Assembly (NCBI RefSeq): GCF_965641715.1
Contig: NZ_OZ282453.1
DNA from: Escherichia coli
Lineage (GTDB): Bacteria; Pseudomonadota; Gammaproteobacteria; Enterobacterales; Enterobacteriaceae
Reading direction: 5' to 3' (one strand)
DNA length: 64,000 bases
Shown: piece after piece, positions 29,649 to 36,723 of the stretch
Layout: the number at the start of each line of letters is the position of its first letter
Position numbering within the stretch: position 1 is the stretch's first letter
The notes under the pieces: model-generated
The model's database searches: none
Told to the model about the DNA's origin: nothing
The model's input: only the letters and a program-made list of their open reading frames with translations
Program-made: the position numbers and the translations under genes

Positions 29649-31235
29649 TTAATGCTCGCGGGTCTGGTGGAACTGAACGTCCGGATAACGTTCCTGCGCC
29701 AGGCGCAGGTTAACCATGCTGGTAGCGATGTAAGCGAGGTTATCGCCGCCATCAAGCGCCAGTTGGCTTTCGTTCTTACGCTTGAACTCTTCGAATTTCT
29801 TCGCGTCCGCACATTCTACCCACCGGGCGGTGGCAACGTTGACTGATTCATATACTGCTTCAACGTTGTATTCGCTCTTCAGGCGCGCTACCACCACATC
29901 AAACTGCAGCACACCAACCGCACCAACGATCAGGTCGTTGTTGGAGATCGGACGGAACACCTGCACCGCGCCCTCTTCGGAAAGCTGTACCAGCCCTTTG
30001 AGCAGCTGTTTTTGCTTCAGCGGATCTTTCAGGCGGATACGACGGAACAGTTCTGGTGCGAAGTTCGGAATACCGGTGAACTTCATCATCTCACCCTGGG
30101 TAAAGGTGTCGCCGATCTGAATGGTGCCGTGGTTGTGCAGGCCGAGGATATCGCCAGGATACGCTTCTTCAACGTGCGAACGGTCACCCGCCATAAAGGT
30201 CAGCGCGTCAGAGATCACCACGTCTTTCGCGGTGCGCACCTGGCGCAGCTTCATGCCTTTTTCATATTTACCGGATACCACGCGCATAAACGCCACGCGG
30301 TCGCGGTGTTTCGGGTCCATGTTGGCCTGAATTTTAAATACGAAGCCGGTAAATTTGTCTTCGCTCGCTTGTACGGTACGGGTATCAGTCTGACGCGGCA
30401 TCGGCGCAGGTGCCCACTCCACCAGGCCATCCAACATATGATCGACGCCGAAGTTACCCAGCGCAGTACCGAAGAATACCGGAGTGATTTCGCCCGCAAG
30501 GAACAGCTCTTTGTCGAACTCGTTAGACGCGCCTTTAACCAGTTCCAGTTCGTCACGTAGCTGCTGTGCCAGATCTTCACCAACCGCAGCGTCGAGATCC
30601 GGGTTATTCAGCCCTTTAACAATACGGACTTCCTGAATGGTGTGCCCTTTACCGCTCTGATAGAGATAGGTTTCATCTTTATAAAGGTGGTAAACGCCTT
30701 TAAACAGCTTGCCGCAGCCAATTGGCCAGGTGATCGGTGCGCAGCCAATTTTCAGCTCGTTCTCAACTTCATCGAGCAATTCCATCGGGTCGCGGATATC
30801 ACGGTCAAGTTTGTTCATAAAGGTGAGGATCGGCGTGTCGCGCAGACGGGTAACTTCCATCAGCTTACGGGTACGATCTTCAACACCTTTTGCGGCGTCG
30901 ATAACCATCAGGCAGCAGTCCACCGCCGTCAGGGTACGATAGGTATCTTCCGAGAAGTCTTCGTGCCCCGGGGTGTCGAGCAGGTTAACCAGGCAATCGT
31001 GATACGGAAACTGCATCACAGACGTAGTAATGGAGATCCCACGCTGCTTTTCCATCTCCATCCAGTCCGACTTAGCGTGCTGGTTGGAACCACGGCCTTT
31101 TACTGTACCGGCGGTCTGAATGGCCTGTCCGAACAGCAGCACCTTCTCGGTGATGGTAGTCTTACCGGCGTCCGGGTGAGAAATAATTGCAAAGGTTCTT
31201 CTTTTCGCTACCTCTGCGGCCAAAAGGCTTGTCAT
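29649..31235 (-). CDS. prfC: peptide chain release factor 3 (start probably [13 protein letters not shown]; N-terminus differs from the K-12 protein as I recall it)
   Basis: GTPase motifs [21 protein letters not shown]; full-length EF-G-like protein. Confidence 0.9.
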
Positions 31236-31421
31236 AATTGTTGTCTCTTTGATTATGTACAATCATATGTACAAAGAAAAATTCATGCCGCTGATTGTAC
31301 ATTTTGGAGGTATCAGAGCATAGCAGAACATGATCAGTAGGTGTATTTGTAGCCAAAGAACATTTGTACATGCAGCAATCTTTGCTCTATTGACACTGTT
31401 TATTTATACAGTTAAAAATAA

Positions 31422-31441
31422 TACTGTATGCAAACACAGTG
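31422..31441 (+). promoter_or_regulatory. candidate LexA (SOS) box upstream of the dinI-like gene
   Basis: tactgtatgcaaacacagtg fits CTGT-N8-ACAG. Confidence 0.45.
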
Positions 31442-31454
31442 TAGAGGGAGTTTT

Positions 31455-31715
31455 ATGCGTATTGAGATCTGCATAGCCAAAGAGAAAATGACTAAAATGC
31501 CAAACGGTGCTGTGGATGCGTTAAAGGAAGAATTAACCCGACGCATCAGTAAGCGTTATGACGATATAGAGGTGATCGTAAAAGCCACCAGCAATGATGG
31601 CCTTTCTGTTACGCGCACCACTGATAAAGATTCAGCTAAAACTTTTGTTCAGGAAACTCTGAAAGATACCTGGGAGTCTGCTGACGAGTGGTTTGTATAC
31701 TCCAACCATAAATGA
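31455..31715 (+). CDS. DinI-family protein (prophage-encoded; track ORF starts at 31428 but a better RBS precedes MRIEICIAK)
   Basis: [35 protein letters not shown]...[16 protein letters not shown] resembles DinI (MRIEVTIAK...QETWESADDWFV). Confidence 0.7.
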
Positions 31716-31883
31716 AGTTAATGACTATTGTGAGCGAGAAACGCGCTACTACTATATAGACAGACAAGATGCACTTACTGAATAAATACTCATAACGGAG
31801 AAACCAGCTGTATAGTGAACAATAGATTTCCAGTAGCATATTTTTACTTCACTTTTAGTTATTAATATGATAATCATAAACTA

Positions 31884-32018
31884 CGGCTCTGCCTTAAATT
31901 TGTGAGGTTGTTTCGCCTCGAAGGAACTAATGTTAGGACATACGCCACCGTTCAGTCGATGGTAACGCTTCTTAACTAGTGGTCCGCTAAGTGATGCGCA
32001 AAGTGATTGGGCAGAGCC
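31884..32018 (+). ncRNA. candidate retron msr-msd ncRNA bounded by 10-bp inverted repeats (a1/a2)
   Basis: cGGCTCTGCC at about 31884-31893 and GGCAGAGCCg at about 32009-32018 are exact reverse complements, immediately upstream of the RT gene. Confidence 0.5.
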
Positions 32019-32042
32019 GAAACGTTTACAATCCGATAGGAG

Positions 32043-33677
32043 TTGGTTTTGTCGCTACATGATAAATTATTAATGCATAACTTCGCATTAGCCAATAAAA
32101 AAAGCCCTGACTTCATATCTGAACTTCCTCAAATTGAACCTAAACCATACAGCAATGGACATAAAATTAAATGGATAAACCACACACTTACTAGCACTGA
32201 AGTTACTCCGCCTGATAACCTGATTAAAATATGCATATTGATTGAGTCAGGGGAAATTGCTATAACATCAGTAAGTGATATTGCCAATTTACTTGGAGTT
32301 CCTGCTGGCCAATTACTTTATATACTATATCGTAAAAAAGATAATTATCGTACTTTTGAAATAGAAAAGAAGAATGGTAAAAAAAGAGTCATTAATGCTC
32401 CTTGTGGCGGTCTATCGATACTCCAAACGAGACTAAAGCCCGTTCTTGAATATTTCTACAGGCCAAAGAAATCTGCTCATGGTTTTATAAAAGGAAAGAG
32501 CATCATTACTAATGCTGGGATGCATATTAAAAAAAAATTTGTCGTAAACATTGACCTAGAAAACTATTTCGAATCAATAAGTTTTGCTAGGGTTTATGGA
32601 ATATTTAAAAGTAAACCTTTTAATTTTTCTCATCCAGCAGCTACTGTTTTAGCTCAGTTATGTACTCACAATGGAAAATTACCTCAAGGTGCGTGTACAT
32701 CGCCAATATTAGCAAATATTGCATCAGCTTCTCTAGACAAACAGCTCACCCAATTTGCAGGAAGAAAAAAAATATCTTATTCTAGGTATGCTGACGACAT
32801 AACTTTTTCTTTCAATCAGAGAAATATTGATATAATCAAAAAAAACGACGACGGAAGTTATAGTCTTAGTGAAACTATAGACAATATTATTTCAAAAAAT
32901 GGCTTTAAAATAAATTATGATAAATTTAGAGTTCAAACCAGAAATACAAGACAAAGTGTTACTGGCTTAGTGGTTAATGATAAAGTTAACATTAACAGAA
33001 GATATATAAGAATTACACGTTCAATGATTCATAGATGGACAGATGATAAGCTAAAGTATGCACTTCTCTTTGCTACAGAAAAAGGATATCAGGCAAAGGA
33101 TAATAACCACGCAATTCAAATTTTCCGAAATCATATTTATGGAAGACTTAGCTTTATAAAAATGGTTAGAGGGAAAGACTATCCAGGATATTTAAAACTG
33201 ATGTCATACATGAGTCATAACGATCCATTAAAAACCCAAGAAGGATTGCGAGCAATGAAAGAAACAGAAAACTTTGATGTTTTTATATGCCATGCAAGCG
33301 AAGACAAAAAAGACATTGCAATTCCAATATATGACGAGTTAACTAAACTTAAAATTTCAGCCTTCATAGATCATGTTGAGATAAAATGGGGCGACTCCTT
33401 AATTGAGAAAATAAATGCAGCACTAGTTAAATCAAAATATGTCATCGCTATTTTATCTGCTAATTCAGTCAATAAGGAATGGCCTCAAAAAGAATTAAGA
33501 GCAGTTTTAGCCAGCGAAATATCGAGTGGCGACGTAAAACTTTTGACCCTATTAAAAAAAGAAGACAAGGAGGTCGTAAACCTATCATTACCTTTACTTA
33601 GTGATAAGTTTTATATGGTCTATGATAATAATCCTGAAGTAGTCGCCAACAATATTAAATCACTCTTACAACGATAA
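32043..33677 (+). CDS. retron-type reverse transcriptase fused to a C-terminal TIR domain (544 aa)
   Basis: RT motifs NAP, VNIDLENYFESI, TSPILANI, YSRYADDITFSF (YxDD) and retron-specific VTG (SVTGLVVN); C-terminus FDVFICHASEDKKDIAIPIYDEL...NKEWPQKEL is TIR-like. Confidence 0.85.
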   Translation: MVLSLHDKLLMHNFALANKKSPDFISELPQIEPKPYSNGHKIKWINHTLTSTEVTPPDNLIKICILIESGEIAITSVSDIANLLGVPAGQLLYILYRKKDNYRTFEIEKKNGKKRVINAPCGGLSILQTRLKPVLEYFYRPKKSAHGFIKGKSIITNAGMHIKKKFVVNIDLENYFESISFARVYGIFKSKPFNFSHPAATVLAQLCTHNGKLPQGACTSPILANIASASLDKQLTQFAGRKKISYSRYADDITFSFNQRNIDIIKKNDDGSYSLSETIDNIISKNGFKINYDKFRVQTRNTRQSVTGLVVNDKVNINRRYIRITRSMIHRWTDDKLKYALLFATEKGYQAKDNNHAIQIFRNHIYGRLSFIKMVRGKDYPGYLKLMSYMSHNDPLKTQEGLRAMKETENFDVFICHASEDKKDIAIPIYDELTKLKISAFIDHVEIKWGDSLIEKINAALVKSKYVIAILSANSVNKEWPQKELRAVLASEISSGDVKLLTLLKKEDKEVVNLSLPLLSDKFYMVYDNNPEVVANNIKSLLQR

Positions 33678-34121
33678 TTCTCTCACAAAAGCAAATGTGC
33701 AGATTGATGCGTATTAAGTATTAACCTGCACATACAAAAAATTAATAAAATAATATATTTTTCATAACCTGCAGGTAACAATAATATGTGTCGTAACGAA
33801 TAGTTGGATAACCTCTATACCCTATTAACCAACCAATTAACTCTATGTAATCTCGCAGCCTCAAAACCCGACTATTGTTCTCTTAACAGTCAGTTCACGT
33901 TCCATTTCGGCCTGAGCCCCATAACATGGAAGAAAAAACGCCCCCAGTCAGTCCAGCTTTCAGACAATCAGTGTGTCACCTGCCGATAATATTCTGAGTA
34001 GTTTTTTCAGCCCAGGCCTTTCGGACTTTGTACCACTGATTTTATCTTCAAAATCAGCGCGCATTCTTCGTAGTCCAGCAAACTCTTGTATATGACGTTA
34101 TTATGGCTACAGCAGTAACGA

Positions 34122-34215
34122 TTATTCCATAACAGGTACTGTAGGCCACTCAATATCCGGTGCTACTGATGTATCAACACGGTTCAGCAACACCCGATAC
34201 TTTTTCCAGGTTGTT
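34122..34215 (-). pseudogene. 3' remnant of the tail fibre assembly gene tfa (about 31 codons)
   Basis: minus-strand translation [28 protein letters not shown] matches the lambda Tfa C-terminus; no upstream tfa coding sequence. Confidence 0.55.
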
Positions 34216-34326
34216 ACCAGACTCACATTCGTTCATTAATATGTCCTGTGATTTGCGTGCGGTGAGGTAGCCTTTTCCCAACCTCACCATCATCCGGCAA
34301 TTTGTATTTATCACAAACGGCCTGTA

Positions 34327-36723
34327 TCAGTTGTCTGTTGCACCAACCATACCCGCAAATTTGAGCCATTGTCCTGATGGACTTCTGTTACCGCGGTAGT
34401 GATAAACAAGGATTGCATTTGTTACTCCACCATAGTCAGCTTTATGTGATGTGGTTAAGCGAATTGTATAATCACCATCGGGCAGGTTAAAAACTTCAAT
34501 TACAGTCCCTGCTAATTCAACCGCTCCAAACCCCGTTATATTGTTGATGCTGCCCGCATTGAATCCCATCATATCGCCAAAACCAATCCAGTACTTTTTG
34601 CTGAACGCACCATTTGACCTCAGGTGGTTAATAAATGTGGACATACTCATGCCCATTTCGCCGCCAGTTATGGCTGATGTACGTACCGAAATACTTGGCA
34701 GAGCACTACTCTTCACATAAGAGCTCAGAAGATTTATGACTTCTGTTTTCGTATAAGCATTAACGTTAGCCGCAGTCAACGTTATATCCGCAGTGCCATC
34801 AAACTTCACACCAGCAATTTCCCTTGCAGTCTGCAATTTCGTGGCACTGGCTGCGTTACCCGTTGTATCCTGATTGCCTGCCGCATTCACCCCCGGGATC
34901 AAATCTTTTACTGTATAAATCTGCGCCCAGTCCGACTCAAACCCATACTCATCCCGTGAGGAACGATAAAACAGCCCACCATTTTTATAATTGGCCCTGA
35001 TTTGCAACGTCCGGCAACTTCCACCCCCTGTATAGAAGTTTGCAACAATATAGCTGCTGCCTGTCCGGGTGACATTGTATGCACCAGATTTGGCATTCCA
35101 CGGAACGCCTCCCTCTGACTCTGCGTGCACACCGGACGATCCAAGAGCAAAAGCAGAGACATCTGCAGCGGACAGCCTGATGTCTGATTTCAATGCCTTA
35201 CCATTCACCTTACGACCAGATGGAACCCGGTCATTTGCATTATCATTCACCGCTTTCACCGCCATTGGTGTTGCCGCCAGCGATTCACTGTCACTGTCCG
35301 TGGCACTGCTGAGCTGTACCACCCCCTTTCTCGTCGTGCTCGCATCCTCTAGCGCCACGGCAGATGCAATATCCTCTGCCCGTTTTGCTGCTGTCTCGGC
35401 ACGCGTTGCTGCAGATTCCGACGTACTTTTGCTCTGAGCTGCCGCTGTCGCACTACCAGCTGCCTCTGTCGCCTTCGTGGATGCCGTCGTGGCACTGACC
35501 TTCGCCTCTGACGCCTGTCTTACCGCCTCATCTTTTGAAGCAGACGCCGATGATGCTGATGACGCCGCCGAACTGGCGGACGATGCGGCTGCCGTTTCTG
35601 AGGCTCCTGCGCGGGTTTCCGACGCTTTCGCATTCGTCTCAGATGTCTTCGCTGCGGAAGCAGAACTCGCAGCTGCAGTGGCCTGTTCAGTGGCTTCGCC
35701 AGCCTTCGTTGTGGCTGTTGAAGCGGACGATGCAGCGCTTTCTGCCGATTTTCCGGCGGCAGCGGCACTGGCTACAGCCTCCCCTGCCTTCACTGATGCC
35801 TCACGGGCCGATGATGCAGCCGCGGTTTCTGAGCCTGCCGCAGCTGAGGCACTCTGTCCCGCTGCCGTTTCAGAAGACCTGGCGTTCGTCTCGGACGTTT
35901 TTGCCGCTTTCGCGGAATTGCCTGCCGCTGTTGCCGAGGAAGCTGCGCTACTGGCGCTCGAGGATGCGTTCGTTTCTGATGATTTTGCCGCCTCTTTTGA
36001 AGCCGCCGCATCCCGGGCTGAGGTGGCAGCTTCTGACGCTTTCGTAGTCGCGGTGGATGCAGAAGTGGCTGCTGATTGTTGTGACGCTGCCGCATTCGTT
36101 TCTGACGTTTTCGCGGCACTGGCACTGGTAGCTGCCGCGCTTTTTGAGGACTCTGCAGCGGCAGCACTTTTTGATGCTTCAGTGGCCTTTGTTGATGCCG
36201 TTCCTGCGCTGGAAGTCGCTGACTGAGCCGACGACGCGGCCTGTCCGGCTGACGTGCTGGCTGCGCGTGCTGAGCCTGCAGCATCAGTCGCATGGGTTGC
36301 CGCCTCACGGGCTGATGTGCTGGCATCACTGGCTGACTTCTTCGCGGCTGCCGTGTTCTGTGCCACCACGGACGCGTTACGCGCCACCTCTTCCACCATC
36401 AGCTCAAAACGGCGCAGTGCCTCCGGACGGGCATCATCCTCCGTCATGGCACCGAGAAAATCATTCAGCGTACCGGGTCGGGAATCTTCATACACTGTGA
36501 TGGTCCCGGCATGTGACGGCGGGAATCCTTCCACCAACAGAATAACGCTGTACTGACCGTACTCAACGTCCATGCTGTAACGCCCGGCTTCATCCGGATT
36601 TTCTGAGGCCAGCGTGTTCACCACCACCGTGGTACTGTTACGTTTTGCTTTCAGCTGGATTGTGCAGTTCTGTACCGGTTTTCCTGTGCCGTCTTTCAGT
36701 ACACCTGAAATCTTTACTGCCAT
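34327..36723 (-). CDS. side tail fibre protein Stf (lambda-like N-terminus, Ala/Ser-rich repeats, divergent C-terminus)
   Basis: MAVKISGVLKDGTGKPVQNCTIQLKAKRNSTTVVVNTL...EEVARNASVVAQNTAAAKKSA matches lambda Stf. Confidence 0.85.
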   Translation of the reverse strand: MAVKISGVLKDGTGKPVQNCTIQLKAKRNSTTVVVNTLASENPDEAGRYSMDVEYGQYSVILLVEGFPPSHAGTITVYEDSRPGTLNDFLGAMTEDDARPEALRRFELMVEEVARNASVVAQNTAAAKKSASDASTSAREAATHATDAAGSARAASTSAGQAASSAQSATSSAGTASTKATEASKSAAAAESSKSAAATSASAAKTSETNAAASQQSAATSASTATTKASEAATSARDAAASKEAAKSSETNASSSASSAASSATAAGNSAKAAKTSETNARSSETAAGQSASAAAGSETAAASSAREASVKAGEAVASAAAAGKSAESAASSASTATTKAGEATEQATAAASSASAAKTSETNAKASETRAGASETAAASSASSAASSASSASASKDEAVRQASEAKVSATTASTKATEAAGSATAAAQSKSTSESAATRAETAAKRAEDIASAVALEDASTTRKGVVQLSSATDSDSESLAATPMAVKAVNDNANDRVPSGRKVNGKALKSDIRLSAADVSAFALGSSGVHAESEGGVPWNAKSGAYNVTRTGSSYIVANFYTGGGSCRTLQIRANYKNGGLFYRSSRDEYGFESDWAQIYTVKDLIPGVNAAGNQDTTGNAASATKLQTAREIAGVKFDGTADITLTAANVNAYTKTEVINLLSSYVKSSALPSISVRTSAITGGEMGMSMSTFINHLRSNGAFSKKYWIGFGDMMGFNAGSINNITGFGAVELAGTVIEVFNLPDGDYTIRLTTSHKADYGGVTNAILVYHYRGNRSPSGQWLKFAGMVGATDN

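Follow-up and report, generated by a model that had tools for sequence, protein, structure and literature searches.

Does the prophage that begins at the 5' end of prfC in this Escherichia coli chromosome inactivate the gene of release factor 3 (RF3) or does it rebuild it, and what is the role of the TGTACA repeats next to the junction? In the window, by which we mean the whole stretch of 64,000 nucleotides that was analysed, ordinary E. coli genes (osmY and others) lie on the chromosome side, to the left of prfC, and the prophage lies to the right (Table 1). We are highly confident that this is the prfC-proximal junction of a prophage of the cdt-I group, that integration rebuilds the 5' end of the RF3 gene and that the TGTACA repeats are arm sites. 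In the proposed mechanism, a P4/SXT-type tyrosine integrase with an N-terminal arm-binding domain would recombine the 14-bp attP core with the identical 14 bp in prfC, the element being a lambda-like prophage of ~47 kb from the cdt-I / prfC-type Stx phage group. The attP arm landing at prfC would bear a diverged copy of the beginning of the gene (16 codons, start codon and upstream region), so that a full-length, in-frame RF3 would be recreated, with the residues EVAKRRTFA unchanged and the first seven, poorly conserved residues new. The native 5' end and its promoter would be stranded at the other junction, beside int, and the TGTACA motifs, four per arm, would be bound by the integrase and organise the recombination complex.

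Table 1. Features of the prfC-proximal junction in the window, and replacement N-termini found in other lineages.
Feature	Position	Strand	Basis or remark
Hybrid prfC (release factor 3), 528 codons	29649-31235	-	ORF list, translation and codon comparison
att core (crossover region), GGGTGAGAAATAAT	31174-31187		sole block invariant in attB, window and integrase-side junctions
Replacement prfC 5' coding sequence, 16 codons	31188-31235	-	contiguous with the integrase-side arm in cdt-I attP
Putative translation-initiation region, CAAAGAGACAACAATT before ATG, weak Shine-Dalgarno match	31236-31255	-	sequence reading; within cdt-I attP
TGTACA pair 12 bp apart, proposed P'1 and P'2, 74 and 86 nt from core	31256-31261, 31268-31273		pair conserved over lineages
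Third P' arm TGTACA	31296-31301		conserved in cdt-I, Ayreon and Stx phages
Fourth TGTACA, outermost recognisable P' arm element	31365-31370		within Ayreon homology
Promoter of DinI-like gene, TTGACA-18-AAAAAT, with LexA boxes 31396-31411 and 31424-31439	31390-31441	+	promoter scan, motif search
DinI-like protein gene, prophage cargo	31455-31715	+	RefSeq annotation of identical stretch
Type XII single-gene retron, RT fused to TIR	32043-33677	+	PADLOC RT-TIR_XII, E=2.5e-187; between DinI-like and tail-fibre genes
Replacement N-terminus MKDLSFAQQVASRRTFA			L169
Replacement N-terminus MSDIQQAHEVGLRRTFA			L171
Replacement N-terminus MSNEINRRRTFA			L174-176, L180
Replacement N-terminus MTNSSIADQVKRRRTFA			L182
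Replacement N-terminus MSNQEFLNEINRRRTFA			L184

The boundary was located by a three-way alignment of the window junction with an uninterrupted yjjG-prfC region (L002) and with the integrase-side junction found in the near-identical prophage of strain PEC41 (L003). To the left of a 14-bp block the window agrees with attB, to the right of it the integrase-side junction does so, and strict identity of the window to attB ends at 31187. The comparison with the uninterrupted region thus defines the att core, and bears out the preliminary description in its proposal that a prophage lies within the 5' end of prfC, as does the presence of the complete attP in free phages. In the record of an Stx2c phage (LC727876), these 14 bp bear the annotation 'duplication due to insertion'. 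The core, which is ATT ATT TCT CAC CC on the prfC strand (Ile-Ile-Ser-His-Pro), corresponds to codons 17-21 of the hybrid gene and 18-22 of the K-12 gene, and runs straight into the GTPase P-loop sequence. The core is thus not located in the very first codons, as had been proposed, and the end of synteny, which had been put exactly at the start of prfC, falls 48 nt inside the ORF, at the core. In the hybrid gene, whose ORF is intact, the phage contributes codons 1-16, the shared core makes up codons 17-21 and the chromosome provides the remainder; the identical junction in PEC41 is annotated in RefSeq as intact prfC (WP_000202564.1). The K-12-like PrfC begins with MTLSPYLQEVAKRR and is one residue longer than the hybrid protein, so that the comparison of translations confirmed the N-terminus as unlike that of K-12.

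The origin of the new 5' end can be read from the circular genome of the cdt-I phage (AB285204), in which attP is contiguous: the integrase gene is followed by an arm of ~230 bp, the 14-bp core and the equivalent of window 31188-31460 at 98% identity (L004 2240-2800). The BLAST match of cdt-I to the window begins at the first core base, 31174. The reconstructed attP is also present in the free phages 2H10 and Ayreon, and the P' arm is common to 2H10, PhiR63_1, Ayreon and 27 Stx1a/Stx2c phages; homology to Ayreon, the cargo of which is different, reaches ~31404. From 31188 onward the window is thus of phage origin, and since this stretch is joined to the integrase-side arm in the cdt-I attP, it is the phage that supplies the 16 codons, the ribosome-binding region and all that lies upstream, as had been supposed. 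In the free phage this prfC-like piece is a 23-codon ORF, and because the attP arm carries such a copy, integration recreates a full-length RF3 in frame. An ORF annotated as 'orf31' in cdt-I (equal to window 31168-31371, minus strand) is out of the prfC frame and probably represents a spurious call.

The far end of the prophage lies beyond base 64,000 and was studied in the PEC41 prophage and in IMG/VR loci. PEC41 resembles the window closely but is a different strain, with 93% of a 16-kb probe covered at 97% identity and tRNA coordinates offset by ~900 nt. Its far end comprises, in this order, the gene of a 407-aa integrase, the core, 69 nt left over from native prfC, yjjG, rimI and holD. A matching repeat at the other prophage end was thus recovered in a near-identical prophage, with prfC split between the two ends. 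A native prfC fragment abuts the core in all 47 IMG/VR integrase-side entries that extend past it, a number which stems from two overlapping scans and includes some contigs twice. The int gene begins beside attP, is directed away from it and shares the strand of prfC (L003 1330-1720; L004 2270-2760). Consequently, what faces into int in the lysogen is the native yjjG-prfC promoter together with the 24-codon remnant of prfC, and in the excised circle the P' arm together with the replacement ORF. No terminator-like hairpin was found between these elements and int.

Among 5426 complete E. coli genomes, a 901-nt junction probe found a match in 5424, mostly ending at 31215, and 641 of them matched through the DinI-like gene. 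With a 311-nt probe, the phage-type junction was detected in 698 of the 5426 genomes (12.9%), and prfC was annotated as intact in the rows sampled from these 698. In the ~4700 prophage-free genomes the nucleotide match ends at window 31215, so that the prfC 5' region of the window differs from that of prophage-free strains.

The replacement was compared with the native sequence over the nine codons adjoining the core (EVAKRRTFA), in which six codons and 8 nt differ from native prfC and all eight substitutions are synonymous. New residues are confined to the first seven or eight positions, which are variable among native PrfC proteins, too. A search with a degenerate DNA pattern for the PrfC N-terminal peptide matched 19 viral contigs, and besides the E. 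coli type five further lineages among them end at prfC with an in-frame replacement of their own (Table 1). Two of these, L169 with myovirus-type baseplate genes and L174, a siphovirus with a lambda-J-type tail tip, both carry replacements ending in RRTFA; since their virion genes differ, unrelated virion modules use one attachment strategy. Judged from its codons, the replacement 5' end is under selection to keep RF3 intact.

The TGTACA motifs were analysed for their number, clustering and position. The window contains 12 copies against 10.4 expected, four of them within 115 bp at the junction; the extended motif WTGTACAW occurs in the window exactly at these four positions, all within 117 bp, where ~3 would be expected overall. 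The attP locus of cdt-I (L004, 5.3 kb) has each of its eight TGTACA copies inside attP, four per arm, at 165-221 bp from the core on the integrase side and 69-183 bp on the prfC side, and none of 200 shuffled sequences reached eight. In all six divergent prfC lineages there is a GTACA pair, its members lying at -85/-86 and -73/-74 relative to the first base of the core, while the start codon varies from -36 to -51 and the GC content ranges between 28% and 62%. At these positions GTACA is missing from nine loci that lack this arm, which are the K-12-like attB and eight loci on viral contigs.

Single-integrase queries of IMG/VR returned the same E. coli prophages alone (97-100% identical) and were uninformative on covariation; diversity was sampled instead by a query with an integrase alignment and by the degenerate N-terminal pattern. 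In the diverged loci L087/L088 the TGTACA motifs stand at -65, -53, -44 and -15 from the int start, compared with -66, -54, -45 and -15 in the E. coli type, and the core-proximal arm bears no resemblance to the E. coli type. All integrase relatives with 50-67% identity have a TGTACA pair ~55-70 nt from the int start and another ~15-28 nt from it, and two of them (L190, L191) offer an intact attP with GTACA at -85, -73, +158 and +170/+188. The spacing to core and int is thus fixed despite a shifting start codon, so the motifs track the core and the integrase, as expected of arm-type sites.

The PEC41 integrase itself matches the Pfam domains PF13356 (Arm-DNA-bind_3, E=5e-16), PF22022 (Phage_int_M, E=3e-07) and PF00589 (Phage_integrase, E=2e-17); an NCBIfam search gave just a weak generic integrase match. 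This homologue of the integrase encoded outside the window hence combines the N-terminal DUF4102/Arm-DNA-bind_3 domain with the tyrosine recombinase catalytic domain, as is typical of the IntSXT subgroup. The suggestion that the TGTACA repeats serve as integrase arm sites is strongly supported by the cross-lineage comparison together with this domain; very probably, the four motifs in the window are arm-type sites, and we infer that the integrase binds TGTACA. A limited search of the searchable literature retrieved only Gateway and phiC31 papers and no report of TGTACA arm sites.

The same arm layout was seen in more distant relatives of the integrase (~50% identity; L202 with the core at 104, L206 with the core at 270, L208 and L214), which lie beside 5' fragments of other genes. 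The peptide IRNFSIIAHI beside one of them is presumably the N-terminus of LepA/EF4, that is, the equivalent P-loop region of a paralogous GTPase, and MALIVQK beside another resembles an aspartokinase N-terminus. This suggests that the integrase family specialises in integration at 5' ends and that its cores in prfC and lepA are paralogous. More speculatively, a same-family integrase with TGTACA arms at the P-loop DNA of lepA may point to an evolution of att sites along gene paralogy.

Whether and from where the hybrid gene is transcribed was approached by promoter scans. When the prfC strand of the phage arm was scanned for the consensus, no good sigma-70 promoter came up within ~180-200 nt of the start; the site that passed the scan, TCTACA-16-TATTAT (9 of 12 hexamer positions matching, 31445-31418), was not found in cdt-I. 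Under relaxed settings there were two weak candidates, TTTTCT-17-CATAAT (8 of 12 matching, 31280-31252) and a TG-extended TATGCT at 31322-31317. In attB, a plausible native promoter (TTGCCT-16-TAAAAT) lies between the genes, ~65 nt ahead of prfC; upon integration it relocates to the integrase-side junction. As the DinI-like and RT-TIR genes are on the opposite strand, no adjacent cargo gene is read towards prfC, and any expression would therefore have to start within ~31236-31450. On these grounds we infer that a promoter in the phage arm transcribes the hybrid prfC. The weakness of the promoter candidates and of the Shine-Dalgarno match and the rare tandem AGA codons of the replacement speak against our explanation.

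These results have to be weighed against other explanations of the locus. A difference that is short and falls into a poorly conserved N-terminal region could reflect an ordinary prfC allele, with the prophage sitting between yjjG and prfC, upstream of the latter. However, in free cdt-I, 2H10 and Ayreon the integrase-side arm is joined to these 48 coding nt and to what lies upstream of them, and a remnant of the native 5' end is preserved at the opposite junction; the three-way alignment and the free-phage attP refute this explanation, the probability of which we regard as close to nil. A more serious alternative is that integration disrupts prfC and that the hybrid ORF is accidental and unexpressed, leaving lysogens effectively RF3-null. 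The gene has been listed among those 'disrupted' by prophages (Bobay et al., 2013, PMC3603311), and the scans revealed neither a convincing promoter nor a strong Shine-Dalgarno sequence for the hybrid gene. It had also been pointed out that prfC loses its native ribosome-binding site and promoter, that the expression of prfC was not known at that time and that the gene is non-essential in E. coli (Ogura et al., 2007, PMC2323221), so that necessity does not guarantee expression of the hybrid. Against disruption, the frame is restored exactly, the substitutions in the nine conserved codons are without exception synonymous, an in-frame start and RRTFA are retained in at least six divergent lineages whose virion modules are unrelated, and the related element SXT has been reported to express a hybrid prfC from its own promoter. 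We therefore consider disruption quite improbable, and our data do not support the 'disrupted' wording for prfC.

A further view concerns the repeats, namely that TGTACA is mainly a transcription signal (a promoter or operator element acting on prfC or, in the circular phage, on int) instead of an arm site. It is true that the copy nearest to the start overlaps the best -10-like hexamer (TGTACATAAT, 31261-31252) and that several lineages have an A/T-rich -10-like sequence after GTACA. The spacing, however, is fixed to the core (-85/-73) and not to the start codon (-36 to -51), the motifs occupy both attP arms, they recur in integrase relatives at lepA-like and aspartokinase-like 5' ends, and the integrase has a dedicated arm-binding domain. 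A mainly transcriptional function thus seems unlikely to us, although the two roles are not mutually exclusive.

Integration into prfC with replacement of the N-terminus is an already known strategy, shared with the cdt-I and Stx phages and with SXT/R391, as is evident from previous accounts (Ogura et al., 2007; Smyshlyaev et al., 2021; Nakamura et al., 2023). The closest known systems are the cdt-I phage (AB285204 / NC_009514; Asakura et al., 2007) and the Stx1a/Stx2c phages at prfC, which have a 98% identical P' arm, the same 14-bp core, the same replacement of the prfC 5' end and a junction-adjacent DinI-like gene as here; the IMG/VR prophage integrases of this group are 97-100% identical to that of PEC41. 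They differ in the cargo at the junction, which is a type XII RT-TIR in the window and cdtABC or other genes in the cdt-I / Stx group. Long-tailed Stx1a/Stx2c phages at prfC have been described by Nakamura et al. (2023; LC727876-LC727902), an Stx1 phage in prfC was found to alter the N-terminus of RF3 (Ogura et al., 2007), and the integrase of the cdt1 phage clusters with IntSXT, both being located at prfC (Smyshlyaev et al., 2021, PMC8138268). SXT also integrates at prfC and provides a new N-terminus and, reportedly, a new promoter from the element (Hochhut and Waldor, 1999). Nevertheless, SXT/R391 are conjugative elements, characterised by conjugative transfer genes and a conserved 52-gene backbone, whereas the element described here is a tailed phage with an integrase that is related, not identical, and does not belong to these ICEs. 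The likeness to SXT is limited to the integration module and the prfC strategy, in which the start codon and N-terminal codons borne by the element restore the prfC frame. From dusA-specific elements (IMEVchUSA3) it differs in target gene, integrase lineage and element type.

The organisation of the arms resembles that of lambda, where short repeats on both attP arms (P1, P2, P'1-P'3) lie tens to hundreds of bp away from the core and are recognised by a separate N-terminal domain of Int. The lambda arm-site consensus is C/AAGTCACTAT, unlike the TGTACA motif found here, to which binding of the integrase is putative. Furthermore, lambda int is read towards attP, whereas int in the present prophage starts beside attP and is read away from it.

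The attP module could be read as a promoter-swap device, an idea that we put forward as a doubtful one, like the separate idea of att-site evolution along the paralogy of prfC and lepA. In the excised circle, the P' arm promoter of the 23-codon ORF may read over the core into int, ~230 nt beyond; after integration it may drive the hybrid prfC, and the native yjjG-prfC promoter may come to lie upstream of int. Integrase bound to the P'1/P'2 TGTACA pair, 21-37 nt upstream of the start codon, may modulate the expression of RF3. The replacement contains tandem rare AGA AGA codons (31197-31202) at the place of CGC CGC in native prfC. Two tRNA-Arg(UCU) genes and one tRNA gene with a CAT anticodon are found in the prophage (59767-59858, 61359-61435 and 61438-61513, minus strand), the first call being unusually long (92 nt). 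With AGA AGA in the prfC 5' end and tRNA-Arg(UCU) on the prophage, translation of RF3 in the lysogen could depend on the AGA-decoding capacity, and reading of the tandem codons by the prophage tRNA may tie the level of RF3 to the prophage.

The body of the prophage in the window carries tail, head, terminase, lysis and tRNA genes from ~34 kb to 62 kb, according to the window ORFs and the RefSeq annotation of PEC41. The region of the DinI-like promoter is prophage cargo, separate from the repair of prfC. The pattern CTGT-N8-ACAG has four matches in the window against 0.65 expected, two perfect ones being located at this promoter. A third perfect LexA-box-like sequence, CTGTTTATTTTTACAG (62587-62602), lies at the 5' end of the minus-strand ORF 61554-62612, the PEC41 counterpart of which is annotated as a DNA methyltransferase. 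The module of promoter and DinI-like gene adjoins different integrases in many lambdoid phages (mEp460, CP-1639). The RT-TIR gene is intact in the window and split into separate RT and TIR ORFs in PEC41. The retron non-coding RNA would be expected upstream of RT-TIR, at 31716-32042; a Rfam scan of 31000-34500, including these ~330 non-coding nt, found no retron RNA or other family above threshold. Between the RT-TIR and tail-fibre genes there is a sub-threshold match to the Rfam family IS009 (34165-34235, minus strand; 41.8 bits against a gathering threshold of 117, E=1.5e-07). No stx or cdt genes were apparent on incidental reading of the genes in the windowed part of the prophage.

To what was already known about prfC as an integration site our work adds only the codon-level evidence, which points to selection for an intact RF3, and the family-wide geometry of the putative TGTACA arms. 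For genome annotation, prophages at prfC replace the first 16 codons of the gene, where some surveys score a knockout, and ~13% of complete E. coli genomes have this site occupied. The cargo delivered to it is medically relevant in other strains (Stx1a, Stx2c and CDT-I) and comprises a retron RT-TIR defence system here. The TGTACA geometry constitutes a concrete, testable prediction for the arm-type sites of this integrase family.
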